From a virus (taxonomy: Duplodnaviria; Caudoviricetes): 64,000 nucleotides of DNA. A model generated the notes under the pieces. That model saw only the letters and a program-made list of their open reading frames with translations. It was not told the origin of the DNA and did not search any database. Shown here piece after piece: positions 1 to 60,494 of the stretch. How positions within the stretch are numbered: the stretch's first letter is position 1; every line of letters begins with the position of its first letter. The position numbers were made by a program, and so were the translations under genes. Location: positions 1 through 64,000 of the IMG/VR virus record IMGVR_UViG_3300005844_000001; one strand, written 5' to 3'.

Positions 1-181
1 CAATCTCCCATTGCATCGTCCCCGCTTGCAAGACGGGGCGATAGAAGCGCGGGTAACGGCTCAAGACTTCCATCCCAATCTTCGCCAGGTAAGCGCAAGC
101 GCGGTGCGGTTCGATATCCGCGTGGCGCTCTTTGAAGAGCCGCTGGACCGTCTCGAATACGTGTTGACGAGCAGAGTTCAT
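1..181 (-). CDS. Hypothetical protein, runs off the window edge
   Basis: Manual translation MNSARQHVFETVQRLF...LQAGTMQWEI; ATGA overlap with upstream ORF. Confidence 0.6.
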   Translation of the reverse strand, partial: MNSARQHVFETVQRLFKERHADIEPHRACAYLAKIGMEVLSRYPRFYRPVLQAGTMQWEI

Positions 182-553
182 TGGCACCTCCGGATTGCGT
201 GGTCGCGGCAATAAGAGTTCATCCGGATACGCTCAACCCAACGAGAATAACTTTCTTGCGATTGCGGTTCTCTAAGCGTCTCTTGAGTCCAGAGAATCTT
301 GTTGCGGAATTCGCCCCGGCAATCTTGACACTCGCATTCTTTGAGAATGTGCGCCGGCACTCTCTGGTAACCATACTCGCTTAGTAATCGTTGGCTTGAG
401 TTCATCGCCCGCCCTCTTTTGCTGCCCATAGAACCGCTTCTTTTTCTTTGCGTCGTCGCTCGTTGTATTGCTCGACCAACTTTGCGTTTACCAAAGCCCG
501 AGTCGACGAGCGCTTGACTCGATAAATAAAACTCCCCGCTTCCAGTTTCTTTT

Positions 554-1021
554 TCATATCCCTGCCTTTAGCTTGAGCTTTTCCAGCGCAGCTCTCGCTT
601 TAACTTTGATTTGCCCTTCCCATTCGGTATCCTGCCGCCCGAGCGTCAAGCCGTGGTAAGCGTCGAGCAAGTCTTTCAGCGCTTGCCAATCTTCGCTCGC
701 TCGCTCGTCTCTCTTGCTTCGTCGCTTGTCGCAATCGCAAGCAACTACGTGCCCGTGTTTGTCGCACCAGTGCGTCGGTCGTTTTGGATGGCAGTCCAGA
801 CTTCCGTTAATCCGATAGTCTTGCGGCAAGTAATCTTCGGTCTCAATCCACTGGCGAATCGCTTTCTGCTTTTCTTCGTCGAAGTAGACTAGCGCCGGCC
901 CTCGGCGGAATAGTAGAGCGTTCCTTCGCTCGTCCGTAATTAGATGCGCGTGGACTAGCAACCGACCGGCTTCATTTGCGGTAAGGTCTCGCACTAGCTT
1001 GTCTCTCGTATTGATACTCAT
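554..1021 (-). CDS. Hypothetical protein
   Basis: 155 aa ORF, ATGA-coupled to both neighbours. Confidence 0.7.
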   Translation of the reverse strand: MSINTRDKLVRDLTANEAGRLLVHAHLITDERRNALLFRRGPALVYFDEEKQKAIRQWIETEDYLPQDYRINGSLDCHPKRPTHWCDKHGHVVACDCDKRRSKRDERASEDWQALKDLLDAYHGLTLGRQDTEWEGQIKVKARAALEKLKLKAGI

Positions 1022-1731
1022 TGTCCAATCCTCCCATTCGCTTTGCCGCTGCCGACTTGATTGAGGCGAATCTGCTGTCCCTTAGCTCGTCCGAAAGCGT
1101 AAGCCGAGTTGCTGACTTGTTGCGCCCGAGCTTTGCGATAAATCAATACTGGAAATTCTTTCTCCACGCGCTTCTCTATCAGAGCATCTTTGTTGACGAC
1201 AATCAACGCCCAGCAACTGGCTTCCTTCGGAGTCAGCTTGGCTTCTTCGCGCTTGTTCACTTCGATGATTCCGTCGCAGAGCCCGCGAAAGACCCCATTC
1301 TTGTTTGCGGCGCAACTGACCATCCCGTTTTTCTCGGCGTGGTAGTAAGTCGAGGGAAAGACTTTCTCCAGATAGGGGAAGAGCTCCCGGCAGATGGCGA
1401 CGTCCGTCGCTTCTCCGATAAAGATAGCTTCCGTGCCGCTGATAATAACTTGAACGCCGAAGCACTGGCGCAGCACGCGATAAATCCACGTATGATAGGG
1501 CTTTTGAGCGCTCGTCTTTATCTGGACGTCGGCGCGGTCGATTTCAATCGACGAGCCAGCAGAGCGCCCGGCCGCCATATCAATCGACGCCAGTTCAATC
1601 CCGTGCTTCATGGCGAGCTCTTTCGCTTTGCCCATCGCCGCTTCCATCTCGCCTTGCGAAGCGTTGCTGTGAGACAGCGCGAGGCACTTGCGAATCTTTT
1701 CAACTACCGCCGAGTTCATTTGATTTGTCAT
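1018..1731 (-). CDS. DUF2786-domain protein
   Basis: N-terminal KIRKCLALS...EMEAAMGKAKELAMKHGI motif and C-terminal AYAFGRAKG typical of the family. Confidence 0.8.
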   Translation of the reverse strand: MTNQMNSAVVEKIRKCLALSHSNASQGEMEAAMGKAKELAMKHGIELASIDMAAGRSAGSSIEIDRADVQIKTSAQKPYHTWIYRVLRQCFGVQVIISGTEAIFIGEATDVAICRELFPYLEKVFPSTYYHAEKNGMVSCAANKNGVFRGLCDGIIEVNKREEAKLTPKEASCWALIVVNKDALIEKRVEKEFPVLIYRKARAQQVSNSAYAFGRAKGQQIRLNQVGSGKANGRIGQ

Positions 1732-1761
1732 AACTTGTTTTTTGTTCGCCCTGTTGAAAGT

Positions 1762-1793
1762 ATATCGTCAGCCCTTAGGGGATACTTTAGCTC
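1762..1793 (-). promoter_or_regulatory. sigma28-like promoter repeat, copy 1 (12-nt spacer)
   Basis: GAGC-TAAAGTAT-CCCCTAAGGGCT-GACGATAT on the minus strand; its TAA is the stop of ORF 1787..1966. Confidence 0.75.
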
Positions 1794-1966
1794 TGTTTCG
1801 ATAGTCGCTTTGCTGCTCGCTCTAGCTGCCGGATATCTGTTGAGAAAGCGACAAGAGATTCACACGGCTGTCCGAGTCTCGGTTCGCAGTTTTGAGTCAC
1901 TACTAGCTTGAACGCGCGGACGAGCGCTCTAGCTTCTTCTTCGCTCAGTTTGAATTTGTTTTTCAT
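1787..1966 (-). CDS. Hypothetical 59 aa cassette protein (not in the ORF track)
   Basis: MKNKFKLSEEEARAL...RLSKQS*; ends in the repeat's TAA. Confidence 0.65.
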   Translation of the reverse strand: MKNKFKLSEEEARALVRAFKLVVTQNCEPRLGQPCESLVAFSTDIRQLERAAKRLSKQS

Positions 1967-2232
1967 ATTTTTGTAATCGTTTGACCGCTGTGGACTCGCA
2001 TCGCGACGCTCGCCTCTTCGATACCCTTAAGCGTCGTCTTTTGGTCCCAACTGCAAATCGTCCGGAGCTTGCGCCCGCAGATTATAATACTTACCCAAGC
2101 ATTAGAACTGCTGAGCGGAGAGTTGTATTGACGAATTCCAGGCAGACTCTCGTCATAAGCCCAACCGAGAGCTTTTAGTCTATCTTCGAACCGGAGCAAG
2201 TCCCGCGAGTTTGTTTGACGTATTTTATTCAT
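1963..2232 (-). CDS. Hypothetical cassette protein (start revised to MNKIRQ)
   Basis: ATG is the last 3 nt of repeat copy 2. Confidence 0.7.
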   Translation of the reverse strand: MNKIRQTNSRDLLRFEDRLKALGWAYDESLPGIRQYNSPLSSSNAWVSIIICGRKLRTICSWDQKTTLKGIEEASVAMRVHSGQTITKI

Positions 2233-2266
2233 ACCAGTATTATCGTCAGCCCTTAGGAATACTTTA
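2230..2266 (-). promoter_or_regulatory. sigma28-like promoter repeat, copy 2
   Basis: TAAAGTAT-N11-GACGATAA-TACTGGT-ATG. Confidence 0.8.
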
Positions 2267-2533
2267 ATCGTTGAATACCACGAGCTCGATACAGCCGTTG
2301 CCTTGGCGGTAGATTGAACGAAACTCGCCCTTGTCAATCAACCGGAAGTCCATCTTGTTGCCGAGCGACGTTGCGATTGCTTCGGGCCATTGACCCGGCT
2401 TCAGACCGATATCGCTTGCGTCAGTCGAGAACTTTCCAGCTTCGTATTCTATCGTATTCGCTTCAGTAGCCCTGGGGCCCAAAGTCGCCATCATCTCTTC
2501 CGCTTGCTCTCTTATTGTCATATTGTTTTTCAT
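2264..2533 (-). CDS. Hypothetical protein downstream of sigma54 module 1
   Basis: 89 aa ORF ending ...LVVFND*; stop inside repeat copy 2. Confidence 0.75.
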   Translation of the reverse strand: MKNNMTIREQAEEMMATLGPRATEANTIEYEAGKFSTDASDIGLKPGQWPEAIATSLGNKMDFRLIDKGEFRSIYRQGNGCIELVVFND

Positions 2534-2544
2534 ACTCTCCTATA

Positions 2545-2660
2545 AGCAAGCTCAATGCCACTACTGTATTATCTATAACTCGTTGAGATTAAGCTAAACC
2601 CTAAATTGAAGATTCCCCTAGTGTCTCGCTACTGGATGGACAGTGTCTCATTTCGAGACG
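2545..2660 (-). promoter_or_regulatory. sigma54 promoter module 1: -24/-12 box (2545-2560), IHF-like site (2576-2588), upstream TGTCTC/GAGAC sites (2622-2660)
   Basis: TGGCATTGAGCTTGCT fits GG-N10-GC; TCTCAACGAGTTA resembles WATCAANNNNTTR; palindrome TGTCTCATTTCGAGACG lies ~90 bp upstream. Confidence 0.75.
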
Positions 2661-2663
2661 CTT

Positions 2664-2939
2664 TCAGAACCCGCGTATCTCTTGCGTCGCCCACTTGCTG
2701 ATGAATTCCAGGTCCAGGAGGACTTGCTTCGTTATCGGGCTCACCGCGGGTTCTGCAGGAACGCTAGCCAGGGCGCGTGAACGCACGCTCGCTTGACGTT
2801 GCTCGACGAGCGCCGGGATTGACGCTAGGTTGGTCGAGACGTAGAGCAGACAAGCGAGAGCCAGCCAGAACGTCTTGAGACTCGCTACCGCTGGCGTCGG
2901 TCCAACTAGCACGTCGAATTCGAAAGCGTCATTGTTCAT
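2664..2939 (-). CDS. Hypothetical membrane protein
   Basis: 91 aa ORF, hydrophobic stretch FWLALACLLYV. Confidence 0.6.
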   Translation of the reverse strand: MNNDAFEFDVLVGPTPAVASLKTFWLALACLLYVSTNLASIPALVEQRQASVRSRALASVPAEPAVSPITKQVLLDLEFISKWATQEIRGF

Positions 2940-3157
2940 AGCCGGTGCTTAGCGACTTTAGCGTAGACTTCGAGAACCCCGTCAAATTTACCGCCGATAG
3001 TTTCTTGCCGGTCGCCGTCTTTGAAGAAGACTCGACAGCCACGACTAGACATCCAAGACCAGACTGGAAAGTTGTAGCGAGCGTCTTCCACGCCGTTGAA
3101 AATCAAGTTCCGCGTAACCGGGTTGCATTCAATATCGACTATTATTATTTCATTCAT
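2936..3157 (-). CDS. Hypothetical cassette protein (start revised to MNEIII)
   Basis: ATG supplied by repeat copy 3. Confidence 0.65.
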   Translation of the reverse strand: MNEIIIVDIECNPVTRNLIFNGVEDARYNFPVWSWMSSRGCRVFFKDGDRQETIGGKFDGVLEVYAKVAKHRL

Positions 3158-3191
3158 ACTAGAGTTATCGTCAGCCCTTAGGGATACTTTA
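3155..3191 (-). promoter_or_regulatory. sigma28-like promoter repeat, copy 3
   Basis: TAAAGTAT-CCCTAAGGGCT-GACGATAA-CTCTAGT-ATG. Confidence 0.8.
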
Positions 3192-3197
3192 GGGGAA

Positions 3198-3557
3198 TTA
3201 TTTCGAAGTTGCAAAAGCCAGAGCTTCAGCCCTTAAGCGAGCTGCGCAAGGGGCGCAATAGCCATGAGAAACGAACGAGCCAAGCGCAATCGACTTGTCC
3301 TTAGTATCGCAAGCGCAACAGAGCCAGAGCATAATCTCTTTGCCCCGACAAGCGGCCTCGCGGACGAGCGCCAGCGCAACGAGCGAGCTAATCGGACCGT
3401 TGTGCTCTCCGGTAATATTGAACCGGCAAGAGTTAAACGACTGGGGACGAATCTCAGTCTTCGTCCCGTCGATATCCCAAATATTGTAGCCGACGCCAGG
3501 AGCGGTCGATTCCAGAGACTTTACCGCCGCCGCAAGTTTGATTGTCATATTCTTCAT
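3198..3557 (-). CDS. Hypothetical cassette protein with Cys/His cluster
   Basis: 119 aa; CCAC...SHGYCAPC; ATG supplied by repeat copy 4. Confidence 0.7.
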   Translation of the reverse strand: MKNMTIKLAAAVKSLESTAPGVGYNIWDIDGTKTEIRPQSFNSCRFNITGEHNGPISSLVALALVREAACRGKEIMLWLCCACDTKDKSIALGSFVSHGYCAPCAARLRAEALAFATSK

Positions 3558-3591
3558 ACCCGAGTTATCGACGCCCTTAGAGAATACTTTA
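3555..3591 (-). promoter_or_regulatory. sigma28-like promoter repeat, copy 4
   Basis: TAAAGTAT-TCTCTAAGGGC-GTCGATAA-CTCGGGT-ATG. Confidence 0.8.
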
Positions 3592-3747
3592 GGGGCGATT
3601 GATATATCCGCTGGGGTTGCGCTTAGCGTCTTCCAGCAAGAGAGCCAGGAGGAACAAAGTATCAGTCTCGCTTTGCGCCATACCGAGCGACTCCGCGCGC
3701 TTCCGGTCAGCGATTAGCGAGTCGATTATTTCATCAAAAGTTCTCAT
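3589..3747 (-). CDS. Hypothetical 52 aa protein (not in the ORF track)
   Basis: MRTFDEIIDSL...YINRP*; stop is the TAA of repeat copy 4. Confidence 0.6.
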   Translation of the reverse strand: MRTFDEIIDSLIADRKRAESLGMAQSETDTLFLLALLLEDAKRNPSGYINRP

Positions 3748-3944
3748 ATCATTCTAGTGTTTGTTCTCGTCGCCCGGAAACAAATCTTCATTGTTGTCGA
3801 TTGCTTCCTGCGCCGGCGTGGGTCGATACTCGTATTGCACTACTCCGCCAAATTGAGTTACTTTTTCGCTTGCCATAATATCGGCAATTTCTTTTACGAG
3901 CTTTTGTTTCTCTTGTCTGGTCATACTTTTTTGAGTTGATTTGT

Positions 3945-4241
3945 TTATAGCTTTGTTAGGTAAGCGTTGACTTTGTAGCAAGACTCGGGCTTGACGTTGA
4001 GCTTTTTGGGCATCATGGCGAGCGCTCGTTCCATCGGAGTTTGCTTTACGTCGAAGTGAATCAAGACCGGCTGGTAAACGAAGACTCCCCGACTACCGGC
4101 GTAGGCGCGCACGTCTTCGATACTTTCGAAGCGAGTTGCCTTCTCGTGGTTGCGCACAGACTTGAATCCAGTCGGCGGAACGTCCACTAAATACACGTTT
4201 TTCTTCTTAAACCAAATTACCCATTTGCTATCAATTTTCAT
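3945..4241 (-). CDS. Hypothetical cassette protein
   Basis: 98 aa; ATG supplied by repeat copy 5. Confidence 0.7.
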   Translation of the reverse strand: MKIDSKWVIWFKKKNVYLVDVPPTGFKSVRNHEKATRFESIEDVRAYAGSRGVFVYQPVLIHFDVKQTPMERALAMMPKKLNVKPESCYKVNAYLTKL

Positions 4242-4280
4242 ACTGGTATATCGACGCCCTGTGGAAATACTTTAGCTCAA
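4239..4280 (-). promoter_or_regulatory. sigma28-like promoter repeat, copy 5
   Basis: TTGAGC-TAAAGTAT-TTCCACAGGGC-GTCGATAT-ACCAGT-ATG. Confidence 0.75.
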
Positions 4281-4523
4281 AGTTTTAGTATCGTCTTTGC
4301 AATCGTTGAAGATTTGCTTTGCGAGCTCTCGACCGTTGAGAGTAAGGACGATTCCGCGGATTGCGTATACCGTTCCGGTGGCGATTGCCAGCTCCATCGC
4401 GACTAAGCTCCGCATCGTCCGAGCGAACCCTTGCCCGCAGGGAGCGTAACCGTAGTTCCCGCCGTCGTTATCCAGCGCCCGTATCAGCATTCTTTTTTGT
4501 TGAAAACTTAATTTGTTTTTCAT
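4272..4523 (-). CDS. Hypothetical cassette protein, winged-helix-like
   Basis: MKNKLSFQQ...TMRSLVAMELA...LTLNGRELA; start and stop both lie inside repeats. Confidence 0.7.
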   Translation of the reverse strand: MKNKLSFQQKRMLIRALDNDGGNYGYAPCGQGFARTMRSLVAMELAIATGTVYAIRGIVLTLNGRELAKQIFNDCKDDTKTLS

Positions 4524-4563
4524 ACCAGTATTATCGTCAGCCATTAGGGATACTTTAGCTCAA
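4521..4563 (-). promoter_or_regulatory. sigma28-like promoter repeat, copy 6
   Basis: TTGAGC-TAAAGTAT-CCCTAATGGCT-GACGATAA-TACTGGT-ATG. Confidence 0.8.
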
Positions 4564-4841
4564 GCTTTGAAATACTTTGCGATATCGGGAAAGTCTCGCT
4601 TGAGCGACGCTACAGCGAGCCGAGCAATCTCATTATCAACTTTGCGAATCTCCGCGCTCATCGTCTTGCAAGTTGCGTCAGCCATAAGCTTAATCGCTAT
4701 GGGCGTGCAACCGTCGTATTTCCCGAAAGACGCTTGCTTGCTCAAAGCGTCTCGAATCGCGCCCGTAGTCCAGCCGGCATTTAGAAGCTCGCCGATTGCT
4801 TTTTGCAGTCTCGCTACCACCGTTTCATTTATCTCGTTCAT
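4560..4841 (-). CDS. Hypothetical cassette protein
   Basis: 93 aa; start and stop (TGA of TTGAGC) both lie inside repeats. Confidence 0.7.
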   Translation of the reverse strand: MNEINETVVARLQKAIGELLNAGWTTGAIRDALSKQASFGKYDGCTPIAIKLMADATCKTMSAEIRKVDNEIARLAVASLKRDFPDIAKYFKA

Positions 4842-4881
4842 ACTAGAGTTATCGTCAGCCCTTAGGGATACTTTAGCTCAA
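4839..4881 (-). promoter_or_regulatory. sigma28-like promoter repeat, copy 7
   Basis: TTGAGC-TAAAGTAT-CCCTAAGGGCT-GACGATAA-CTCTAGT-ATG. Confidence 0.8.
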
Positions 4882-5028
4882 ATCGGGAGCTTCGTATTTC
4901 TCTGGCTCGATTCGCTTGCCGCACGTCTTGCAAACACAAGCTCCTTCGTCAGTTACGTCCATAAACTCGCCGCAACATTCCGGCGGCTCAGCGGGGTCTT
5001 CGGGTGGGTGATTCCAGTATTCGTTCAT
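4873..5028 (-). CDS. Small zinc-ribbon-like protein
   Basis: MNEYWNHPPEDP..ECC..CVCKTCG..APDLS*; stop inside repeat copy 7. Confidence 0.6.
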   Translation of the reverse strand: MNEYWNHPPEDPAEPPECCGEFMDVTDEGACVCKTCGKRIEPEKYEAPDLS

Positions 5029-5270
5029 ATTTTTGTTGTCTTGAGTTGATACGCATACAAGTCGCGCAACGTATAAAACCATTCATTCGGCGCTGCGACC
5101 CGAGCGTAATTGACCATCGGAGTGCATCCGACTTGCAACCGGCCGTTTTCGCCGATACAATCCCGGCTCTCGCGCTTAATCAACGTCCCGTCGCTATTCA
5201 CAAACTGGTCCCAGGGAGTGCCGTTCTCGTCAATCACTCGATTTTGTTTTGTCCACGTATTTCGTTTCAT
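5025..5270 (-). CDS. Hypothetical cassette protein
   Basis: 81 aa; ATG supplied by repeat copy 8. Confidence 0.7.
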   Translation of the reverse strand: MKRNTWTKQNRVIDENGTPWDQFVNSDGTLIKRESRDCIGENGRLQVGCTPMVNYARVAAPNEWFYTLRDLYAYQLKTTKI

Positions 5271-5310
5271 ACCAGTATTATCGTCAGCCCTTAGGGATAC
5301 TTTAGCTCAA
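5268..5310 (-). promoter_or_regulatory. sigma28-like promoter repeat, copy 8 (consensus copy)
   Basis: TTGAGC-TAAAGTAT-CCCTAAGGGCT-GACGATAA-TACTGGT-ATG. Confidence 0.8.
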
Positions 5311-5502
5311 GTTCAAAGGCACCGTATACCAACGCCTTCCGTGTTTGAATTGAGTCCGATATTCCCCGCCTTGCGTTGACGTAAAGTGAGCGACTAGCTC
5401 CCGCGCTTGATTGTCAGTTTGGATAAAGATATCTCGCAATTCTAACGTGAACCATTCGCCGTCTTCTTTGCGTTGCACTCTTCGATATTTGTTCTCGTTC
5501 AT
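5302..5502 (-). CDS. Hypothetical protein downstream of sigma54 module 2
   Basis: 66 aa; ends LS* inside repeat copy 8. Confidence 0.7.
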   Translation of the reverse strand: MNENKYRRVQRKEDGEWFTLELRDIFIQTDNQARELVAHFTSTQGGEYRTQFKHGRRWYTVPLNLS

Positions 5503-5513
5503 ACTCCCCTAAT

Positions 5514-5624
5514 AGCAAGCTCAATGCCACTACTGAATTATCTCTAACTCGTTGCTCTTAAACTAAACCCTAAATCGACTCTTTTCCACTACTGTCTCAA
5601 AAGAGAAAGACAGTGTCTCATTTC
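5514..5624 (-). promoter_or_regulatory. sigma54 promoter module 2: -24/-12 box (5514-5529), IHF-like site (5545-5555), upstream TGTCTC sites (5593-5624)
   Basis: Identical TGGCATTGAGCTTGCT box; CAACGAGTTA and GACAGTGTCTCATTTC are shared with module 1. Confidence 0.75.
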
Positions 5625-5625
5625 T

Positions 5626-6492
5626 TTACAGTCCAGCAACTTTCCGAATCAAGCGAAGCTCTTTCTTCGAAGACTCCGCCGGGTCTTTCGCGTCAATTAC
5701 GATATTCTCCGTTACTCCGGAGAAGCAAGCGAGCAAGTCCGCCAGCTCCCGCGCCCGCGCTTGAGCGTCGCTCGACGAGTCCAGGCAGATGTAGCGTCTC
5801 GGGAAGCTGGCGAGCGTCTTAACTTGCTCGCTCGTCCAGGCGAGCCCAAAGAGCGCTCCAGCGCCGGGACCGATAGCCCAAGCGTCTATCGGGCCCTCGA
5901 CGATTACGACGGCGTGGCGGCACCAATCCGCTCCATAAATGACGTGTTTGAGATTGATACTCGCTTCCGTCTGTGGCGCAGACAAGTATCGTCTCGTCGC
6001 TCGCTCCCCGATTGCGCGAGTTGTCCAGCTGACGCGGACTCGCTTGCTCAATATCGGAATATAGATTCGCCAAGCGAGTCGAGCGTCTATCCCGATTCCC
6101 TCGACTTGCCAGAGGCGCTGAATCTCTTCGGGGTCAAATCCACGACGCTTGAGATAGTCCCGGTGGCAGCGTTGCAACGGGCCGCGCCCTCCCGGTTCTT
6201 TCAATCGCCCAGACCACTCCGCTTTCTCCGGCTCTTTCCCTAGCTCGTAGTCGTGGAGAAACTCTCGGATAGTTGCTGACGAGACTCCGAGCTTGAGCAA
6301 CGTCTCCCAGACCGGGTGCCAGCGACATTTCCAGCAAGCAAAAAACTTGTCGGAGAGATTGAACCCGAGATGGTAATTTTGCGAACCGCAGAAGGGACAA
6401 ACTCTGACTTGCAGCCAGCCGGCCCGGCAATGGTTGTGTCCGGATTCTAAGTATTCAATCCCCGCGCCAGACAATAGCTCCTGGATGGTCAT
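5626..6492 (-). CDS. DnaG-type DNA primase
   Basis: Zn-binding CPFC...CWKC; TOPRIM motif IVEGPIDAW...ICLD. Confidence 0.9.
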   Translation of the reverse strand: MTIQELLSGAGIEYLESGHNHCRAGWLQVRVCPFCGSQNYHLGFNLSDKFFACWKCRWHPVWETLLKLGVSSATIREFLHDYELGKEPEKAEWSGRLKEPGGRGPLQRCHRDYLKRRGFDPEEIQRLWQVEGIGIDARLAWRIYIPILSKRVRVSWTTRAIGERATRRYLSAPQTEASINLKHVIYGADWCRHAVVIVEGPIDAWAIGPGAGALFGLAWTSEQVKTLASFPRRYICLDSSSDAQARARELADLLACFSGVTENIVIDAKDPAESSKKELRLIRKVAGL

Positions 6493-6644
6493 TTCCTAAG
6501 GACGTATTGCTTCATCAGCTTGACGATAGCCTCTTGCATCGTCTGCCCCTTGCGAGCGCAAGCCGCTTTGAATTGGTTCTTGGTATCTATCGGGATACCC
6601 TTGAAAAACAAAACACCTTTGTGGTGCTGCAGTTCAGATTTCAT
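6489..6644 (-). CDS. Small ribbon-helix-helix (Arc/ParG-like) DNA-binding protein
   Basis: MKSELQ...IPIDTKNQFKAACARKGQTMQEAIVKLMKQYV; ATGA-coupled at both ends. Confidence 0.7.
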   Translation of the reverse strand: MKSELQHHKGVLFFKGIPIDTKNQFKAACARKGQTMQEAIVKLMKQYVLRK

Positions 6645-7993
6645 AATTTCTCCGTTCGTATTATCTCCAGCAAGTCTTCGAAGATATTGAAGCTCTGAGC
6701 GTCTTCTTCTCCGTTCAATACTGCGTCCAAGATATCCGACTTCTTCCGCAGAATTCGCACCAGCTTCTCTTCGATAGTCCCTAACGCCGTCAAGTAATGA
6801 ATGACGACTTTCTTCTTTTGCCCAATCCGGTGGATGCGGTCTTCGCCCTGTAGCAAGTCGCCGGGACTCCAAGGGAAGTCCAGAGCTGCCGCGTTGCTGG
6901 CCGCATGCAAAGTAATTCCGACTCCAGCCGCTTTCCAATTTCCCAACAGCAGATTGACGCGACGATTGGATTGGAACTTCCGTACAGTCTCGTCCCGCTT
7001 GCGCCCGACTACGCGGCCATCGATAACGACGCTGGACGGGAATCTCTCTTTCAATTGGTCGATGACAAAAGTATGCATGGTCAACGCCACAAGTTTCTCC
7101 CCGGGGTGCGCGATAAAGAATTCCTCAATCCATTGCTTGGTCCATTCCATTTTCAACTTGGCTACGAGCCGCAACAGATATCCGACTTTGACGAGCGCCA
7201 GACTCTTCTTCGCCCGCATCGCTCGGGATGGGCTGGTCTCTTTGAGCCAGACCAGAAACTCGTTATCAGCCCTACGATATTCCTTGTAAGACGCCAGCCG
7301 GAACGGAACGATACGCCGAGTCTTGGCCGGCAGCTCCAGCAGCACGTCTTTCTTGAGCCGGCGAATCATGCACTCCGAGCGGAGAATCCGGTTCAGTTGT
7401 TTCAAGTTCGTTGCGCCATCGTATCTCCAGCCCCACGGAGTATATCGCGGCTTGCAATACGCCCAAGCATACTCTTCCCGGGATGGAAACAAATCGGGGC
7501 GGATGATTCGCAAGATGGACCAGAGCTCAATCGGCCGGTTCGTCAACGGAGTCCCGCTCAGCCCGATAACCGAAGAAGCTTTCTTGACCAGCCTCCGGCT
7601 GGCTCTGGTTCGTCTCGCTCTCGGCGTCTTCAGGTAATGCGCTTCGTCAAAGATTACCGTTTGCGGTTTAGCTTTCAATAGAACCGGCAACCACGATTCC
7701 AGGATATCGTAATTGATAATAACTACGGAGCCGGGAAGCGGCTGGCGTCGCTTCATCTGGCCTTCCAAGACTTCCGTCCGCATATTGAAGTGGATGGCCG
7801 CTTCCGACTGCCAAGTATATTTGACCGAAGCGGGGACTACGATAACGACTGGCCGTCGGCGTGGCGTCTTGAGAATCCAATAGAGCGATTGAATAGTCTT
7901 GCCCAATCCCATTTCATCAGCCAGCAAAGCTCGCCCTTTGAACGCTCGGATTTGACGAGCGCCAGCCAACTGAAATGGTTTAAGCTTGGTCAT
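6641..7993 (-). CDS. SNF2-family (SMARCAL1/HARP-like) helicase
   Basis: LLADEMGLGKT, DEAH, LSGTP, GVGITL, QGEDRIHRIGQ. Confidence 0.95.
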   Translation of the reverse strand: MTKLKPFQLAGARQIRAFKGRALLADEMGLGKTIQSLYWILKTPRRRPVVIVVPASVKYTWQSEAAIHFNMRTEVLEGQMKRRQPLPGSVVIINYDILESWLPVLLKAKPQTVIFDEAHYLKTPRARRTRASRRLVKKASSVIGLSGTPLTNRPIELWSILRIIRPDLFPSREEYAWAYCKPRYTPWGWRYDGATNLKQLNRILRSECMIRRLKKDVLLELPAKTRRIVPFRLASYKEYRRADNEFLVWLKETSPSRAMRAKKSLALVKVGYLLRLVAKLKMEWTKQWIEEFFIAHPGEKLVALTMHTFVIDQLKERFPSSVVIDGRVVGRKRDETVRKFQSNRRVNLLLGNWKAAGVGITLHAASNAAALDFPWSPGDLLQGEDRIHRIGQKKKVVIHYLTALGTIEEKLVRILRKKSDILDAVLNGEEDAQSFNIFEDLLEIIRTEKL

Positions 7994-8232
7994 TTCGCAT
8001 AATAAGCCGAGTCTAATTTTCCTTCGCGTTCTAATTCTTCAAGGTCTTTTTTGTCGTTGAAAAACTCGAAGCCCGTAATGTTTTGAGACATTGTATGCAT
8101 GTGACGAAACCGCTTATATTCGCCCGGCTTCCACGATTGATGCCGATACCACGATACGTCGGGGATGGTTTTCGTAAAAGGAACTTCGGTCAAGTTCTCT
8201 ACTTGCGGAGGAGTATCTTTGTTTGTTTTCAT
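7990..8232 (-). CDS. Hypothetical protein
   Basis: ORF coupled to the helicase start. Confidence 0.55.
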   Translation of the reverse strand: MKTNKDTPPQVENLTEVPFTKTIPDVSWYRHQSWKPGEYKRFRHMHTMSQNITGFEFFNDKKDLEELEREGKLDSAYYAK

Positions 8233-8236
8233 AAAT

Positions 8237-8809
8237 TTAATGAGCCCACACTTCCCAAAACCGCAATTCAATCTCTCGTTGCGCTCGCTCGATGCGTCGC
8301 TTGTCCAGGCCTTTGCTCTGGAGATATTCTTTGACTCTCGCCAGCAGTTGCTTCGGCGTCATCTTGCTCCCCAAGTCCAGACTTTCTCCGCGACGCGGGC
8401 CAGCAGCAATCCGCCCCACTTCCAGAATCTCCGCCGGGGTCTCCAGCAGGAGACTGATTATCTCTTGAGCGTCTTCCGACAAGCCACCAATCATATCCAT
8501 AATCTCGCTACGTTGCTCCGGCGCGAATCCAGTCAACTCGTCGTTCATCTCCGTGCAGATTAGCGGGTCTCTCGTCCGCTTCGTTATCCAGCTACGCAAG
8601 CTCGTCCAGACCTTAAAGTAGCACCAGGAAGAGAACTTAGAACCGCGGCGGCTATCGTAAGTTTGACAAGCGAGCATGAAGGCCAGATAAGCCTCGCTCC
8701 GCGACTCTTCGAAAGTTACTGGACAAGCTTGCGCGACTTTCCACGCCAGACTGCAGAGCATTTTTTCCACTTTGGGAAATTCAATTTGCGGGTCGATTTT
8801 ATTTGTCAT
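8237..8809 (-). CDS. Phage-encoded sigma70-family sigma factor (region 2 clear, region 4 divergent)
   Basis: EESRSEAYLAFMLACQTYDSRRGSKFSSWCYFKVWTSLRSWI matches the region 2.2-2.4 pattern (E.GL..A...FD..RG.KFSTYA...I); LSEDAQEIISL resembles region 4.1. Confidence 0.75.
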   Translation of the reverse strand: MTNKIDPQIEFPKVEKMLCSLAWKVAQACPVTFEESRSEAYLAFMLACQTYDSRRGSKFSSWCYFKVWTSLRSWITKRTRDPLICTEMNDELTGFAPEQRSEIMDMIGGLSEDAQEIISLLLETPAEILEVGRIAAGPRRGESLDLGSKMTPKQLLARVKEYLQSKGLDKRRIERAQREIELRFWEVWAH

Positions 8810-8860
8810 TTGTCGTTGGTTAGAAAGTATATCTTTCTTATATAGACGTCCAGTTTTATT

Positions 8861-8898
8861 TTGCCCAAGTTTTGAGACGTAGAGATAATACGCACGTG
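8861..8898 (+). promoter_or_regulatory. sigma70-like leaderless promoter of the SbcCD operon
   Basis: TTGCCC-N17-GATAAT-N6-GTG. Confidence 0.6.
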
Positions 8899-9954
8899 AA
8901 ACTAGAGTCGATTAAACTAAACAATTTCCAAGTGCACAAAGACTTGGAAGTAAAGTTTTCTCCGTCCATCACTACAATTAAGGGCAAGACTGACGCCGGC
9001 AAGAGTGCAGTCCTGCGGGCGTTGCGTTGGGTCTGCTTAAATGACACGGCAGGGGTGGACTTCATTAAGGAGGGGACCAAACGGGCTATCGTTACGCTGA
9101 CTGTCGTTCACGAGCCGGCTCCGTTAGTCCGGTTGGAAGAAGTGATAGTCCGCAGCAAGAACGTCGACGGAGCGACTAATACGTATGCACTAGACGGGAA
9201 GGAATTCAAAGCGTTCGGGCAAGGCGTCCCTCCGGACATCGCCAAAACCCTAGCTCTAAACGAAATCAATTTCCAGGGGCAGCACGACGCTCCGTTCTGG
9301 TTTGCTGAGACCGCTGGAGAAGTATCGCGCAAGCTGAACGCGGTAATTGACTTGTCGATTATCGATACGACGCTGGCTAATATCGGAGCTGAAGTCCGGC
9401 GGTCGCAAGAGCGGAAGTCTTTGTGCGAAGAGCGATTGAAAGAAGCGAAGACGCAACTGGAAGAGCTCGCCCCGCAGAGAGAACGGATTGAGGAATTTCG
9501 CAATGTTAAAGTCAAACAAACTACGCTTAAAGCCGTTGCTGAAGATTACGATAAACTGGCAGACGTCCTGGAGCGGGTCCGTGCCAATCCAGCGAGGGCC
9601 CTCGCTGCACAAGCAGCGGACGGCAGTACGCTATTGTCAGCGATGCTTTCCGCCCTTCGAGCGGAAAGCGCTGTTGAGGTGCTGGAGGAGATTGTAGAGG
9701 CGATAAGCAAGTGGCAAAGCAAAGCAAAGCCGCCGCCGGACTTCTTGCCCGTGCAGCGAGCGTGGAGTGAATGGCTCGGAGTAACAGACCACGCTGCGGA
9801 GCTTACCGAGCTAGTTGAGTCAGTAGAGAAAAAGCAGTCGGACTTTGCGCTCAGCGATATTGCTACTATACAAGCCGAAGCAAAGTTTCACGCTCAAGTG
9901 CGCGGCAAAGTTTGTCCGCTATGCAAGCAGATAATTGAACTTGATGAAAGATAA
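8896..9954 (+). CDS. sbcC: SbcC/Rad50-like ATPase, N-terminal half
   Basis: KLESIKLNNFQVH, Walker A GKTDAGKS, Q-loop QGQHD, coiled coil, terminal zinc hook CPLC; no Walker B. Confidence 0.9.
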   Translation: MKLESIKLNNFQVHKDLEVKFSPSITTIKGKTDAGKSAVLRALRWVCLNDTAGVDFIKEGTKRAIVTLTVVHEPAPLVRLEEVIVRSKNVDGATNTYALDGKEFKAFGQGVPPDIAKTLALNEINFQGQHDAPFWFAETAGEVSRKLNAVIDLSIIDTTLANIGAEVRRSQERKSLCEERLKEAKTQLEELAPQRERIEEFRNVKVKQTTLKAVAEDYDKLADVLERVRANPARALAAQAADGSTLLSAMLSALRAESAVEVLEEIVEAISKWQSKAKPPPDFLPVQRAWSEWLGVTDHAAELTELVESVEKKQSDFALSDIATIQAEAKFHAQVRGKVCPLCKQIIELDER

Positions 9955-10891
9955 GCTTTATCCAATAGCCGTTGCTGTTGCTGACTTGCATCTCTCTTTG
10001 CTCCAGCCGGCTTGCCGAGCCGATAAGAGCTGGACGGACGTGCAAGCGGGATACCTCGAGCAACTAAAAGAGATTGCTGAAATTCGAATGACAGACGGTT
10101 CGCTTAGAACTTTGCCTATCCTCTGCGCGGGAGATATTTTTGATAGATGGAACGCCAGCCCCGAGTTGATTAACTTTGCATTGCACTGGTTACCCGATGG
10201 TATGCTGTGCGTCCCTGGCCAGCACGACTTGCCGCTCCACCGGAGCGACTTGATGCACCGCTCCGGATACGGAGTATTGAAAAAAGTAGGGAAGATTAGA
10301 GACTTGTCCGAAGATGTGGTAACGATAGCAGCGGAGAGATTGATGGTGTATGGATACGGATGGGAGCAAGAAATTGAACCGCTGGAAAGTAAATCCCGAG
10401 ACCGCTTTCTCTACGTCGCCCTCATTCACCGCTACGTGTGGACGGTCGAAGCTGGCTATCCGGGAGCGCCACAGTCTTCGCACCTGAGCTCGCTAATGAA
10501 ACCATTGAAGGGCTACGACGTGGCAATTATCGGCGACAACCACAAGCCGTTTCTAAAAGAGCTCAAGAACGGCTGCACGGCCTACGGCTGCGGAACCTTT
10601 ATCCGCCGCAAGACCGACGAGATTGACTACGCTCCCAGCGTCGGGATAATTTACAGCGACGGCACGGTAAAGCGCAAGCGCCTCGATACGTCTGGCGACT
10701 TGTTTCACTTGAGCGCTATTGCCCGGCCGGAGACAGCTTTCAATATGAAAGAGTTTATCGAAGGGCTGGAAGAGCTCGGCGAGCACGGGCTGGACTTTAA
10801 GGCAGCCGTTGAGAATCACCTCAAGAATGAGGACGTTCATCCACAAGTAAAGGAAATTATCTTGGCTGCGTTAGATAATACGAGAGTATGA
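9935..10891 (+). CDS. sbcD: SbcD/Mre11-like metallophosphoesterase nuclease
   Basis: ADLH, AGDIFD, PGQHD, IH, GDNH motifs. Confidence 0.9.
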   Translation: MNLMKDKLYPIAVAVADLHLSLLQPACRADKSWTDVQAGYLEQLKEIAEIRMTDGSLRTLPILCAGDIFDRWNASPELINFALHWLPDGMLCVPGQHDLPLHRSDLMHRSGYGVLKKVGKIRDLSEDVVTIAAERLMVYGYGWEQEIEPLESKSRDRFLYVALIHRYVWTVEAGYPGAPQSSHLSSLMKPLKGYDVAIIGDNHKPFLKELKNGCTAYGCGTFIRRKTDEIDYAPSVGIIYSDGTVKRKRLDTSGDLFHLSAIARPETAFNMKEFIEGLEELGEHGLDFKAAVENHLKNEDVHPQVKEIILAALDNTRV

Positions 10892-20989: not shown

Positions 20990-21466
20990 TTATTTCTTTT
21001 CGTTGGTTTGATAACTCAGCGCAGACGCGATGGCGCTTTGCAGCACCGCGAGGATTTGCTGCAGGTTAGTTTTAGCTTCCGGAGCGCCCCGATTGCTTTG
21101 GTAAGCGACTTTCGCCTTGTCGAGGTCGTTAATCCAAGTCTCGCCGTGAGCGCGGACTTCTTCAGCGAGCTTGTGGATAGCTGGCGACTTAGCGGCGAGC
21201 GTGGCTTCATTGTTACGTTCAAACTCCATAAACGATTTGAACGTATCGGCGGCCACTTTCCCCGTTTTCTCGGCGGCCACGACAAGCTTGTCAGCTTGAG
21301 CTTGAGTATCGTAGACGCCAGTACTCGGGTTGTAAGTCCCCGTCTGCGTGCCAGCGCAGCCCGAGCAACCGACAAGGACCGCCGCCAAAGGCGGCATAAG
21401 AAGGAGAGAAGGAGTTGCGAGTGCGAGGGTCCCGGCCAGCATTAGTGAACTTAGAAGTTTCTTCAT
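20990..21466 (-). CDS. Putative lipoprotein
   Basis: MKK plus hydrophobic stretch and LVGC lipobox; helical body. Confidence 0.7.
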   Translation of the reverse strand: MKKLLSSLMLAGTLALATPSLLLMPPLAAVLVGCSGCAGTQTGTYNPSTGVYDTQAQADKLVVAAEKTGKVAADTFKSFMEFERNNEATLAAKSPAIHKLAEEVRAHGETWINDLDKAKVAYQSNRGAPEAKTNLQQILAVLQSAIASALSYQTNEKK

Positions 21467-21501
21467 ATTGACATAGTAAGTTCCTTATCGACTAGAGACA
21501 A
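21464..21501 (-). promoter_or_regulatory. sigma70-like leaderless promoter
   Basis: TTGTCT-N17-TACTAT-N6-ATG. Confidence 0.6.
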
Positions 21502-21504
21502 GCT

Positions 21505-21545
21505 AATAAAAAACCCGCCCAGAAGGGCCACTTCCAGACGGGTTT
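21505..21545 (-). terminator. Intrinsic terminator
   Basis: AAACCCGTCTGGAAG/CTTCTGGGCGGGTTT stem followed by T-run. Confidence 0.75.
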
Positions 21546-33610: not shown

Positions 33611-33640
33611 AAGACTTTCTCTTTGCTAACACGTCCTAAC

Positions 33641-33704: not shown

Positions 33705-33706
33705 GC

Positions 33707-58182: not shown

Positions 58183-59247
58183 TCATATGTATCTCCGCTT
58201 TCTTTCTGGCAGGCATTCATTTTCAATTTGTTTCCAAACCATCTCCGTCAGCTCCACTACTTTTTGCTCCAGCCCCTCTTCCTCGATATGAGCGATAACT
58301 GCACCACGCGAACCGGTAAACAGAATATCCTTTGCGTCAATCTCCTTGTTTTCGTTCTTTTTCCAGTGCTTCTCAGCCACCAGAAAATCGACGCACGAAC
58401 CCACATCGTCAATCCCTAGACCGTAGTAAATCGGTATCTGCACCGCACGGTCTTTGCCCACTTTACCCGTCACCCTATTCTTCTTTACCTCGGCCAGGCA
58501 ACGAGCCCCCACCGTGCGCGGCTTTCCTCTCACCGTTCGCAAAATCTTCCCGACTACGCTCGTCCATATTTCCAAGTTAGCGTAGAAGCGCAACGCCCGG
58601 CCGCCGGCTCTGGTTCGCGTCTCGAACCCGAACTTGAGATTGTCGCGGGTCTGCCCGATAACCAGGAGGATGGATTTGGTCCGCCGCAGCCCCGCGAGGA
58701 CGTGGCGCAAGTTCTCGCTATGGTATTTGGCTTTGCTGTCTCCATACGAACCCTTGGAATCCTCTCCCTCTTCAGCGGCTTTCTTCTGGATGGCAAACTT
58801 CTTAGCCGCCGCCTTAGACGTCAGCGCATCTTGAGAATCGAGGACGTAGATAAACGGCCGGCGAGCTTTAATCAAGTCAGCCATGCGGTAGTAGAAAGAT
58901 TCAATCGTGCTGGACTGGACCCACTTCATCCGCTTGGCCATATCCTTCCCAAAGTAGTGCGCGACATCCATCAAAGCTCCGCCCTCCACGTCGTCGTAAA
59001 TCAGCTCGTAATTCTTGAAAGCTGGCGAGCGACACGCTTCCGCGAAGCAGGACAAGCTTAGCCACGTCTTGCCGGAGACGCTATCCCCGACCAGATAGTA
59101 GTAGGCTCCTTTGAGATACCCGCAATCCGCACGGTCCGTACAAGCTAAATTGAGGAGGGTGCTCCCCGTCGAGAGAGCACCCTCCTTGGACAATACCGAC
59201 TTCTCACGCGGCGCCAGCAATGCTTTCTTGTCCGCCGCAGTATTCAT
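58183..59247 (-). CDS. recA: RecA/UvsX-like recombinase
   Basis: STGS..LN, GDSVSGKT, DVEG, VLDS, GGRALRFYA, VKKNR. Confidence 0.92.
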   Translation of the reverse strand: MNTAADKKALLAPREKSVLSKEGALSTGSTLLNLACTDRADCGYLKGAYYYLVGDSVSGKTWLSLSCFAEACRSPAFKNYELIYDDVEGGALMDVAHYFGKDMAKRMKWVQSSTIESFYYRMADLIKARRPFIYVLDSQDALTSKAAAKKFAIQKKAAEEGEDSKGSYGDSKAKYHSENLRHVLAGLRRTKSILLVIGQTRDNLKFGFETRTRAGGRALRFYANLEIWTSVVGKILRTVRGKPRTVGARCLAEVKKNRVTGKVGKDRAVQIPIYYGLGIDDVGSCVDFLVAEKHWKKNENKEIDAKDILFTGSRGAVIAHIEEEGLEQKVVELTEMVWKQIENECLPERKRRYI

Positions 59248-60494
59248 TACTTCTTCTTTTTCTTCGGCGCGGGCTCTTCGTCCCAATCGTCTTCGTCGTC
59301 TTCTTCTTCCTCATCTTCGTCTTTAGCCGGCTTCTTTTTCTTGGGCGTAAGCTCTTCGTCTTCTTCGTCGTCTACTGCTGCCGGTTTCTTTTTCTTAGGA
59401 GCCGCTTCTTCTTCTTCATCTTCCTCGTCATCCTCGTTAGCGTCCCAGCCCTTGTCATCTTTTTGGGAAGCAAAGCGATTTTTCTTTTTAGGTCTGGATT
59501 CATCTTCGTCTTCGTCGTCGGTATCTTCTTCCTCTTCGTCCTCGTCCTCGTCGTCCTCTATCGGCTTCTTCTTTTTCTTGGGAGCTTCGTCTTCTTCGTC
59601 GTCGTCTACCGGTTTCTTTTTCTTAGGCGTAGGCTCTTCGTCTTCTTCCCAATCGTCCTCGTCCTCTTCCTCTTCCTCGTCTTCCGGCTCAGCAGCCTTG
59701 CGCTTTTTCTTAGGCAGAGTTTCCGTAGTATCTTCTTCCTCGTCTTCTTCTTCGTCCTCTTCATCTTCAGCCGTCTGGAGAAGGACTTTCTTCAAGTCGT
59801 CGTAGGGTTCTTGAACCAGCAACTTGTCCAGGCAGTGAGTCTCTTCCAGAATCTCGTCATCGTATTGCTCCTTGCGCGGCTTGAAATCGATGGTCTCTGC
59901 TTCGACAAACGAATTGCCGGCAAAAGACTTCTCAGTAAAACCGACCTTCAACGTGAACCCATCCTCCAGGAAAAAGAACTTCTCCCAGCCATCGTCTTCG
60001 TCTGAGTCGCGTATCCGCAAGTCCAGCAACCTTCCGAACAAGTGGTAAGAGATATCCCACAACTGAACTCCCTTGTCCGGCTCTTTGAGATTGATGACGT
60101 TGAAGAGCTGGCGCTGCTTCGGAGACAGGTCCTTCGCTGCCGCTTCTTTGTCTTCGTCGCCGTCGGCCGACTTGAGCAAGCTCAGCCGGTGCTCACAGAC
60201 GGGGCAGCGCCCCTTGCTGGACATCCGCGCGCACAAGTAGGAATCTTCATTCGCTCCGATGCCGCGATGGGAGTAATACGTCCGCTCATAATGGAGGTTG
60301 CCGGGTTCCGCCCACGGGTTGCCTTTGCCGACGATATACGGGATAATATCCAGCAACATCACTCCAGCTTTCGCTTTGAATAGCGTGACCTTATCTGGCA
60401 ACTTCAGGTAAGGAGCGGAGTAACCCGTCGACTGCTTGTCAGCTCGCTCTCGGGCCGACGTGTATCTGCGTTCTGATTTATTTGACCTACTCAT
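59247..60494 (-). CDS. gp32-like single-strand DNA-binding protein with long acidic/basic tail
   Basis: H...YLC...CPVCE Zn site; ~175 aa D/E tail with PKKKK repeats. Confidence 0.82.
   Translation of the reverse strand: MSRSNKSERRYTSARERADKQSTGYSAPYLKLPDKVTLFKAKAGVMLLDIIPYIVGKGNPWAEPGNLHYERTYYSHRGIGANEDSYLCARMSSKGRCPVCEHRLSLLKSADGDEDKEAAAKDLSPKQRQLFNVINLKEPDKGVQLWDISYHLFGRLLDLRIRDSDEDDGWEKFFFLEDGFTLKVGFTEKSFAGNSFVEAETIDFKPRKEQYDDEILEETHCLDKLLVQEPYDDLKKVLLQTAEDEEDEEEDEEEDTTETLPKKKRKAAEPEDEEEEEDEDDWEEDEEPTPKKKKPVDDDEEDEAPKKKKKPIEDDEDEDEEEEDTDDEDEDESRPKKKNRFASQKDDKGWDANEDDEEDEEEEAAPKKKKPAAVDDEEDEELTPKKKKPAKDEDEEEEDDEDDWDEEPAPKKKKK

Follow-up and report, generated by a model that had tools for sequence, protein, structure and literature searches.

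The minus strand near one end of a 64,000-nt stretch of phage DNA (hereinafter the window; bases 1-64000 of the 75,073-bp virus record IMGVR_UViG_3300005844_000001 of IMG/VR) carries a series of short direct repeats separated by small genes. The question raised by this locus is whether a unit of about 40 nt can combine the stop codon of one gene with the promoter and the start codon of the next one, and whether such units serve as the sites at which complete genes are gained, lost or replaced. An initial annotation of the window interpreted the repeats in this manner, as the connectors of an integrase-free cassette system. The results described here support this interpretation in part: the stop-promoter-start array can be viewed as a case of promoter-repeat-mediated modular shuffling that is built on a sigma28-type, probably leaderless unit.

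The eight direct repeats that were originally described in the window are all present there on the minus strand, with the TAAAG boxes starting at 5304, 4875, 4557, 4274, 3591, 3191, 2266 and 1789 and with a start-to-start spacing of 283-925 bp; the array is in fact about twice as large and consists of 15 copies. The seven further copies, also on the minus strand, are located in the same record past the end of the window (74221, 73987, 73168, 72745, 72484, 72270 and 67171). Because the ends of the record overlap by 90 bp, the 15 copies form a single continuous head-to-tail array of about 13.5 kb in the pre-replicative region, which wraps around the record ends and, in the direction of transcription, runs from position 5600 of the window to position 1 and then from 74983 to 67171, ending just past the gene for a DnaB-like helicase. 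All 15 copies are oriented with the direction of the genes, and none is found elsewhere in the 75 kb: a loose motif scan of the whole record yields 22 matches, of which 15, all on the minus strand, contain the full motif, and the other seven (three on the plus strand and four on the minus strand) do not. The repeats are far more frequent than expected by chance, with five matches to the 27-nt core at up to 3 mismatches compared to 0.00 expected (100 shuffles). The consensus of the Escherichia coli sigma28 promoters, again at up to 3 mismatches, has eight matches in the window compared to a chance mean of 0.61 (largest value, 4). Seven of these matches are repeats, and the remaining one, on the plus strand at 1419, has no relation to them; the copy at 1789 escapes the consensus pattern due to its 12-nt spacer.

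The published consensus of sigma28 promoters is TAAAGTTT-n11-GCCGATAA, and the aer transcript is reported to begin 6 bp downstream of the octamer (PMC2859248). The mapped FliA sites of E. coli, as far as they are given in the published set, include GACGATAAC and GTCGATAA variants, and the spacers of these sites are unrelated to each other (PMC4183435). The phage repeat has the form TAAAGTAT-n11-G(A/T)CGATAA and agrees with this consensus at 7 of the 8 positions in each box. The -35 box TAAAGTAT is present in all 15 copies, the -10 octamer is GACGATAA or GTCGATAA in most of them, some others showing changes at the 3' end (e.g., GTCGATAT), and the boxes are separated by 11 nt in 14 copies and by 12 nt in the remaining one. 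The spacers belong to a few mutually unrelated classes, including CCCTAAGGGCT (7 of the 15 copies), TTCCACAGGGC and others, and the boxes that enclose them remain constant; this combination of unrelated spacers with fixed boxes is the behavior of a promoter, unlike that of a single protein-binding site. Judged by its sequence, the repeat is a near-consensus promoter of the sigma28/FliA class, and we infer that it is active as such. Two other promoter assignments were rejected. A sigma70-type reading would pair TTGAGC with a GATAAT-like hexamer 22 nt away, which is too far, and TTGAGC is present in only 7 of the 15 copies; a hairpin promoter of the N4 type is not supported either, given that the stem formed by CCCTAAGGG is no longer than 3 bp and that the second spacer class forms none.

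The position of the repeats relative to the adjacent genes is tightly constrained. The upstream gene is terminated by the TAA of TAAAG in 10 of the 15 copies, by the TGA of the preceding TTGAGC in 3, and by a separate stop codon 9-11 nt upstream in 2, so that the stop codon is located within the -35 box or 5 nt before it in 13 copies. For the eight copies in the window, the respective counts are six, one (4557) and one (3191, with a separate TAA 9 nt upstream); three upstream open reading frames (ORFs) end in LS* (TTG AGC TAA). Thus, the earlier claims on the stop codons hold in full, as does the observation that the terminal ATG starts the next gene in seven of the eight window copies. Across the whole array, an ATG that opens an ORF of 60-195 codons (73-119 codons for the seven copies in the window) follows the -10 box after 6-7 nt in 12 of the 15 copies, and in the remaining three, A-rich leaders of roughly 30-130 nt precede the ATG. 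The conserved TTGAGC block, where present, reaches into the upstream coding sequence. The most common form of the repeat, TTGAGC-TAAAGTAT-CCCTAAGGG, contains a stop codon in each of the three frames, a feature that carries little weight because there is no clear sign that the stop in the third frame is used.

The individual copies in the window, all on the minus strand, illustrate this geometry. Repeat 8 (5268..5310) consists of TTGAGC, the -35 box TAAAGTAT, an 11-nt spacer, the -10 box GACGATAA and 7 nt that lead to the ATG of g2 (5025-5270), and its TAA is the stop codon of g1 (5302-5502). The TAA of repeat 7 (4839..4881) ends g2b (4873-5028), and the ATG of g3 (4560-4841) is found 7 nt past the -10 box. 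In repeat 6 (4521..4563), which has the spacer variant CCCTAATGG, the TGA of TTGAGC terminates g3 and the ATG of g4 (4272-4523) is at 4523. Repeat 5 (4239..4280) combines the second spacer class, TTCCACAGGGC, with the -10 box GTCGATAT; its TAA closes g4, and g5 (3945-4241) starts 6 nt past the -10 box. After g6 (3754-3924) and g7 (3589-3747), the latter of which ends at the TAA of repeat 4 (3555..3593; spacer TCTCTAAGGGC), comes g8 (3198-3557), with its ATG in that repeat and its separate stop codon ahead of repeat 3 (3155..3193), which provides the ATG of g9 (2936-3157). Repeat 2 (2230..2268), past g10 (2664-2939), joins the stop codon of g11 (2264-2533) to the ATG of g12 (1963-2232). Finally, repeat 1 (1762..1795), the copy with the 12-nt spacer, contains the stop codon of g13 (1787-1966) and is followed by an A-rich leader of about 30 nt and by the ATG, at 1731, of g14 (1018..1731), a DUF2786/DUF7168 protein gene that is the first one in the long unit behind this repeat. 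In relative R of the phage (see below; contig L028) and in one contig of sequencing run X4, the promoter before g3 (repeat 7, ~4850) lacks the five bases CGATA of the -10 box; this repeat is probably a dead copy, which would mean that dead copies also circulate.

No Shine-Dalgarno-like sequence is present in the stretch of 6-7 nt (TACTGGT, CTCTAGT, ACCAGT etc.) that separates the -10 box from the ATG. The start codons that abut a promoter have neither an A-rich nor a Shine-Dalgarno-like leader, in contrast to the other genes, which have A-rich leaders or ATGA overlaps, and this difference is consistent with leaderless initiation at the first gene of a unit and leader-dependent initiation at the others. 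Each unit would accordingly be organized as the -35 box (C)TAAAGTAT, an 11-nt spacer, the -10 box G(A/T)CGATAA, a discriminator of 6-7 nt and the next ATG; the TAA of the -35 box, or the TGA of the preceding TTGAGC, would end the upstream gene. With the ATG so close to the -10 box in 12 copies, transcription is predicted to start at or beside the A of the ATG, so that the mRNAs are probably leaderless and the first gene of the unit would be translated without a leader, with the genes located deeper in the unit relying on the A-rich leaders or the ATGA overlaps. The geometry agrees with the original view of the unit as stop, promoter and start in one piece. A scan for terminator-like sites on the minus strand at 1762-5600 found none. 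The repeats also precede replication genes and as such appear to be the main pre-replicative promoter class of the phage rather than only a device for accessory genes.

An alternative that deserves mention at this point is that the repeats are binding sites of a phage regulator and not promoters. The stoperators of cluster A mycobacteriophages are one-way sites associated with stop codons, and the single orientation of the phage repeats, their position at gene ends, the overlap with the stop codon and the conserved spacer are all compatible with a site of this kind. We nevertheless regard this as very improbable: the two conserved blocks correspond, at the exact spacing, to the -35 and -10 boxes of a known class of promoters, the spacer comes in two or more unrelated classes between constant boxes, and a repressor site has no need of the fixed distance to the ATG.

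The genes between the repeats do not appear to be spurious. None of the 10 scanned ORFs, of the 14 cassette ORFs in the window (1787..5502, minus strand), has a Pfam match over the cut-off or a match among the PHROGs. The ratio of nonsynonymous to synonymous substitution rates (dN/dS) is 0.15-0.33 for the five cassette ORFs that are common to both main haplotypes (g3, g5, g7, g8 and g10) and 0.00-0.34 across 18 ORFs shared by the window type and relative R, which indicates that these ORFs are real genes under purifying selection. Across the haplotypes, the cassettes amount to roughly 25 ORFans.

The motif is restricted to a small clade. Its exact 26-nt pattern was found in five stretches in IMG/VR (four contigs) and in five stretches in the JGI metagenomes, and the phage itself is present in 23 DNA runs from rhizosphere or soil, with no RNA run among the sequencing runs found to contain it; all the haplotypes compared below are metagenome assemblies, and the evidence from reads comes from k=31 contigs. 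Gene-family maps resolve three haplotypes, namely the window type, which recurs in L024 and L026; that of the 74-kb relative R, which recurs in L011, L012, L025, L027 and L028, with L028 bridging the whole array; and L014, which is similar to R but lacks g34. The window type and R are 82-97% identical in the shared blocks and show about 11 differences in the array, compared to 3 small breaks in about 19 kb of the flanking genome. Hence the gene content between the repeats differs between close relatives, in contrast to the identical order that would be expected of ordinary fixed promoters.

Three of the events are clean insertions or deletions (indels) between two sigma28 repeats that leave a single hybrid repeat behind; these involve g4, g23 and g34, and the sequence shared at the junction is 14, 17 and 9-10 nt, respectively. 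A fourth event of this kind comes from the reads, in which a junction variant had been predicted: in run X5, a 719-nt contig joins 4848 to 5278, skipping exactly the unit between repeats 7 and 8 (g2 and g2b), with 33 nt that fit either flank of the join; the flanks are 226 and 493 nt long, and the depth in this run is zero over 5001-5200. Three more differences are bounded by promoters on both sides: sigma54-g1/sigma28-g2 is replaced against sigma28-g35/sigma28-g36-g37, g11-sigma28-g12-g13 is replaced against g43, and g19 together with a sigma28 copy is inserted between a sigma54-type module (see below) and the ATG of g20.

Given that the repeats, at 40 nt, exceed common k-mer sizes and that all the sequences are metagenome assemblies, the differences between the cassettes could in principle be artefacts of short-read assembly. 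Most of the read joints with short sides indeed reflect multi-mapping of the repeats: of the 11 joints found, three were kept (4848-5278 and two at a repeat-free indel), and eight (2940-3153, 3377-3454, 4277-5267, 4284-3553, 4285-5487, 4353-4525, 4881-3553 and 5307-1758) were dropped because their sides were only 23-51 nt long, as expected from such multi-mapping. Several loose contig ends were not counted either, having been traced to repeat copies past the end of the window (for example, those of X5 at 1758 and 1792 match the copy at 73168). As an account of the cassette differences, however, misassembly is hardly credible. Each of the two main haplotypes was recovered more than once, in assemblies that are independent and come from different records, unique DNA is one-sided in both directions (g4, g23 and g12-13 versus g34, g35-37 and g46), and depth in X5 drops to zero over the skipped cassette.

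A more serious alternative is that the repeats are ordinary fixed promoters without any role in recombination, and that illegitimate or short-homology exchange followed by selection places the breakpoints at gene junctions, in an early region that, as in other phages, is hyperplastic anyway and in which most junctions happen to be promoters. Several observations weigh on this side and against exchange at the repeats. Repeats are lacking at both ends in four of the 11 events, namely g6 versus g39/g40, the insertion of g46, the indel at g16-g17 and the swap of the replication initiator; in one more, g9 versus g42, a repeat is found at one end only. A promoter is present at about 18 of the roughly 32 gene junctions within the array, so that the 6 of 11 events that are promoter-bounded at both ends are not clearly above the roughly 3.5 expected by an estimate from the junctions, a difference that is not significant. 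No duplicated or relocated cassette was detected among the haplotypes compared, these haplotypes are all assembled from metagenomes, and the evidence from reads for a join between repeats is a single contig. Furthermore, a repeat-free indel (180-552) is seen in relatives and read contigs just as the repeat-bounded ones are.

The latter indel, of about 372-404 bp (g16-g17; window 148-554), separates the window haplotype from all the relatives and is bridged by contigs of X4, X5 and X8, with joints of 148 to 553 and 395 to 554.

Fixed promoters account poorly for three features of the array. The four exact repeat-to-repeat joins, each with one hybrid repeat and 9-33 shared nucleotides, bear the signature of exchange between copies; the 11-nt spacer is identical in 7 of the 15 copies, which promoter function does not require; and the conserved TTGAGC block in the upstream coding sequence, also in 7 of the 15, suggests that the copies have been homogenized or have spread together with gene ends. 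Taken together, the joins, the spacers and this block point to copies that exchange with each other, and a purely passive role of the repeats appears possible but rather unlikely. The initial annotation had held that a crossover between any two copies would excise, duplicate or swap whole expression units. Gain, loss and replacement of units are observed; duplication, a move to a new slot and circles are not seen among the assemblies and k=31 contigs compared, and the localization of exchange to the repeats holds for the four clean joins but not for the repeat-free events or for a statistical enrichment over gene junctions.

On balance, the explanation that we favor, with moderate confidence, is that the repeat is the pre-replicative sigma28-class promoter of the phage and that units are exchanged by recombination between its copies. 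The unit of about 40 nt makes up the whole intergenic space, and stretches of 9-33 bases are identical among many of the copies. Recombination through homology or microhomology, either among these copies or with a relative that infects the same cell, would remove, add or replace complete expression units and leave their ends intact. The machinery of the UvsX type encoded by the phage probably drives this exchange. A UvsX-like recombinase (58183..59286, minus strand) is the candidate driver, and the record also encodes an SbcC-like protein, an SNF2 helicase and a weaker match to UvsY, so that the recombination genes to which the initial annotation had pointed have counterparts in the genome. 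No tyrosine or serine recombinase was found, with neither Phage_integrase nor Resolvase matches in the 75-kb record, in keeping with an integrase-free system. By protein content, this is a siphovirus-type phage, with a tape-measure protein, a J-like tail protein, a portal protein and a large terminase; its replication genes include a family A DNA polymerase, the DnaB-like helicase and a replication initiator, and nearly all genes are on the minus strand. Positions 1000-8900 of the window have no match among GenBank phages at blastn sensitivity, and a search of the window for tRNAs found none.

Which sigma factor reads the repeats is a separate question. The phage encodes a divergent protein of the sigma70 family, whose gene (8237..8809, minus strand) is transcribed toward the array and is located about 2.6 kb upstream of it. 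Its match to Pfam Sigma70_r2 (E 4e-5) is just under the cut-off, and viral Sigma70_r2 clusters match as well; the NCBIfam matches are far below the cut-offs (ECF superfamily, E 0.003; FliA_WhiG, 9.2-12.9 bits against a cut-off of 189.6). A profile of 19 sequences matches only region 2 of SigA, RpoS and RpoD, and a fold search yields weak sigma matches, with no FliA among the matches listed. The protein has 19 homologues at 38-99% identity in a large protein collection and is 97-99% identical in the close relative. These searches place the protein in the sigma70 family and do not tell which promoter it recognizes. No RNA polymerase was found among those of the phage proteins that were scanned.

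The same promoters and cassettes might thus be read by the phage's own sigma factor. Under this scheme, which we consider a tentative alternative, the phage sigma would be expressed first, from the sigma70-like promoter TTGGGC-18-TATATA that, by our own reading, precedes its gene, and would then redirect the host core polymerase to the 15 repeats. SPO1 gp28 and phiEco32 gp36 redirect the polymerase to middle promoters in this manner. The location of the gene just upstream of the array, the matches to sigma region 2 and the conservation of the protein in the close relative are all compatible with such a role. Sigma28 is a scarce host factor under anti-sigma control, and as the only reader of promoters that serve replication genes it would be risky for the phage. 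Against this stands the lack of FliA-like features in the phage protein, for which the profile and fold searches return SigA, RpoS and RpoD, with no FliA among the matches listed, and the match of the repeats to the conserved sigma28 consensus in both boxes and in spacer length, which is most simply explained by sigma28 itself. The motif is absent from all 10 loci around distant homologues of the phage sigma, which are 29-64% identical to it, compared to 10 copies in the close relative, although this co-occurrence test is weak evidence because the specificity may have diverged and the loci extend no more than 10 kb to each side. Moreover, a Sigma70_r2 match over the cut-off was found in none of five other phage records with several consensus sigma28-type sites, of which only one has a completeness of at least 90%.

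What the terminase relatives suggest about the host bears on the same choice and weighs against reading by a host sigma28. Among the 33 genomic relatives of the large terminase (50862-52286, minus strand; L073-L105), 19 are labelled Bacteroidota, although relatives in genomes are only 25-53% identical and thus too distant to name the host. FliA over the family cut-off was found in none of the four Bacteroidota-labelled genomes tested, and a host from this phylum, if it is one, would lack FliA. Bacteroidota have Shine-Dalgarno-poor, A-rich leaders, and the leaders of the phage resemble this style; its own sigma gene next to the array counts on the same side. One metagenome-assembled genome of Planctomycetaceae has two FliA over the cut-off, and the G+C content of two Planctomycetaceae loci is 37-38%, compared to 53% in the phage. 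The Bacteroidota-leaning terminase relatives without FliA sit uneasily with a phage full of sigma28-type promoters. Because the phage protein is not FliA-like and the motif is missing from the 10 homologue loci, host sigma28 is favored as the reader of the repeats, and because of the Bacteroidota leaning and the lack of FliA there, we hold it with confidence no better than even; the phage's own sigma factor seems the less probable of the two.

The sigma28-type units are not the only promoter-like elements that abut start codons in this genome. A sigma54-type module of about 130 nt, which includes an 81-nt repeat, occurs three times in the record and twice in relative R. The module contains TGG(C/T)AT-N5-TTGCT. 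A conserved palindrome, AGACACTGTCT, precedes the TGG by about 65 nt, and the GC is followed after about 12 nt by an ATG, so that near-leaderless transcripts would be produced here as well. One module, with TGGCAT-N5-TTGCT, precedes g1 (5500..5620, minus strand); the second appears to drive g11 and forms the left boundary of one of the replacements relative to R (2531..2655, minus strand); the third is at about 74400-74540 of the record (about 10400-10540 of L009). No sigma54 activator was found to be encoded, the only candidate being a weak AAA+ match at 61833-61988 in an open frame of 352 amino acids. A broader possibility, which we put forward tentatively and consider rather doubtful, is that a lytic siphovirus has wired its pre-replicative program to alternative sigma factors of the host, through about 15 sigma28-type and 3 enhancer-dependent sigma54-type units, all of them leaderless, with the unit as an integrase-free connector for exchange. 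If this were the case, the phage genes would be expressed only in a particular state of the cell, for example in motile cells with free sigma28, and a gene dropped between two copies of the unit would at once be correctly terminated, transcribed and translated.

Several other elements were noticed in the course of the analysis. A sigma70-like promoter, TTGTCT-17-TACTAT, follows a terminator-like hairpin at 21467-21530 (minus strand) and is followed 6 nt later by the ATG of an ORF (20990-21466), so that it would likewise yield a leaderless mRNA. A conserved element of about 65-75 nt (…CCGCTATGTTGACACTC…AATAAA…GGTCCTA…ATCCTGACGG…) is present in three copies, one of them inverted (33611-33706, minus strand; 55280-55354, plus sense; and 64925-65044 of the record, minus strand), and may represent another promoter or regulatory class, perhaps a target of the phage sigma factor. 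The distant relatives L071 and L072, found through the DUF2786 protein (42% identical in L071), have no sigma28-type sites in the loci examined. In L071, three sigma54-like motifs, TGGG..-N-..TGCT, are each followed about 12 nt later by CATATG (3178-3214, 9644-9680 and 9999-10035), so that the design in which the promoter abuts the ATG recurs there without the sigma28 motif. Unrelated AT-rich viral contigs (L037, L039, L042, L044, L047, L054, L057, L059, L063 and L064) contain 3-4 near-perfect sigma28/sigmaD-type sites each (CTAAAGTTT-n11-GCCGATAAG), some of which abut an ATG and some of which precede a Shine-Dalgarno sequence. With several other uncultivated phages having multiple sites of this type, phage use of the sigma28 class may exceed the documented extent.

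The array described here makes this phage a concrete example in which early expression may rely on leaderless translation and on the flagellar sigma factor or a phage mimic of it. Such a unit might find use as a minimal expression connector, and the ORFan cassettes make up a defined set to be screened for host-takeover or anti-defence activity. A search of a limited literature collection yielded no report of phages with arrays of sigma28-type promoters or with leaderless promoter repeats. The likeness to the bacterial sigma28 promoters (FliA, sigmaD, WhiG), as these are published, consists in the TAAAG-type -35 box, the 11-nt spacer, the (G)CCGATAA-type -10 box and a start a few nucleotides on. 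Unlike the promoters of bacterial flagellar and chemotaxis genes, those described here occur in a phage, in 15 copies with near-identical spacers, place the predicted transcript start at the start codon, and would drive ORFans and replication genes instead of motility genes.

Leaderless mRNAs include that of lambda cI from PRM and those of many genes in Actinobacteria and Deinococcus. The similarity to these is the start codon at the predicted 5' end with no Shine-Dalgarno sequence; the difference is the modular, repeated design in the phage, which is common to the sigma28-type and sigma54-type units and to one sigma70-like site. The host-takeover module of SPO1 and similar clusters also contain many small genes of unknown function, nearly each with a strong promoter, upstream of the replication genes. 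These clusters use the host primary sigma factor and leaders with ribosome-binding sites, and to our knowledge no recombination role has been claimed for their promoters. Integrons, finally, share with the array a one-orientation series of small genes with a repeated site between them, where cassettes are gained and lost. However, integrons depend on attC sites and an integrase, and have cassettes without promoters; the phage array lacks tyrosine and serine recombinases, and every unit has its own promoter.

The nearest precedent, as the initial annotation aptly proposed with regard to the way of working, are the PeSLs (promoter-early stem-loops) of T4-like myoviruses, which are sigma70-like promoters joined to stem-loop terminators and for which mini-circles have been shown (PMC2839356, PMC4122927). 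As far as the published accounts of PeSLs go, both cases involve a hyperplastic region in which small ORFan genes are flanked by short and conserved repeats of a regulatory kind; close relatives differ by repeat-bounded insertions, deletions and replacements, represented here by the four clean repeat-to-repeat events and the three promoter-bounded changes; and homologous recombination without an integrase is the proposed mechanism, with a T4-type UvsX-like recombinase also present in this phage. The differences from those accounts are equally clear: the promoter is sigma28-type and not sigma70-like, the scan of the array revealed no terminator-like site on its coding strand, the stop codon of the preceding gene is part of the unit, the ATG of the following gene adjoins it without a leader, and the genome that harbors it is a 75-kb one of the siphovirus type and not that of a T4-like myovirus. 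With both the sigma70-like promoter and the terminator stem-loop missing, the array is not a PeSL; in the way it would work, it appears to be closest to the PeSLs, with a connector that is more compact, given that stop, promoter and start are all contained within about 40 nt. Repeat-mediated modular shuffling would thereby be extended from the sigma70 PeSLs of T4-like phages to an unrelated type of phage and to another class of promoters.

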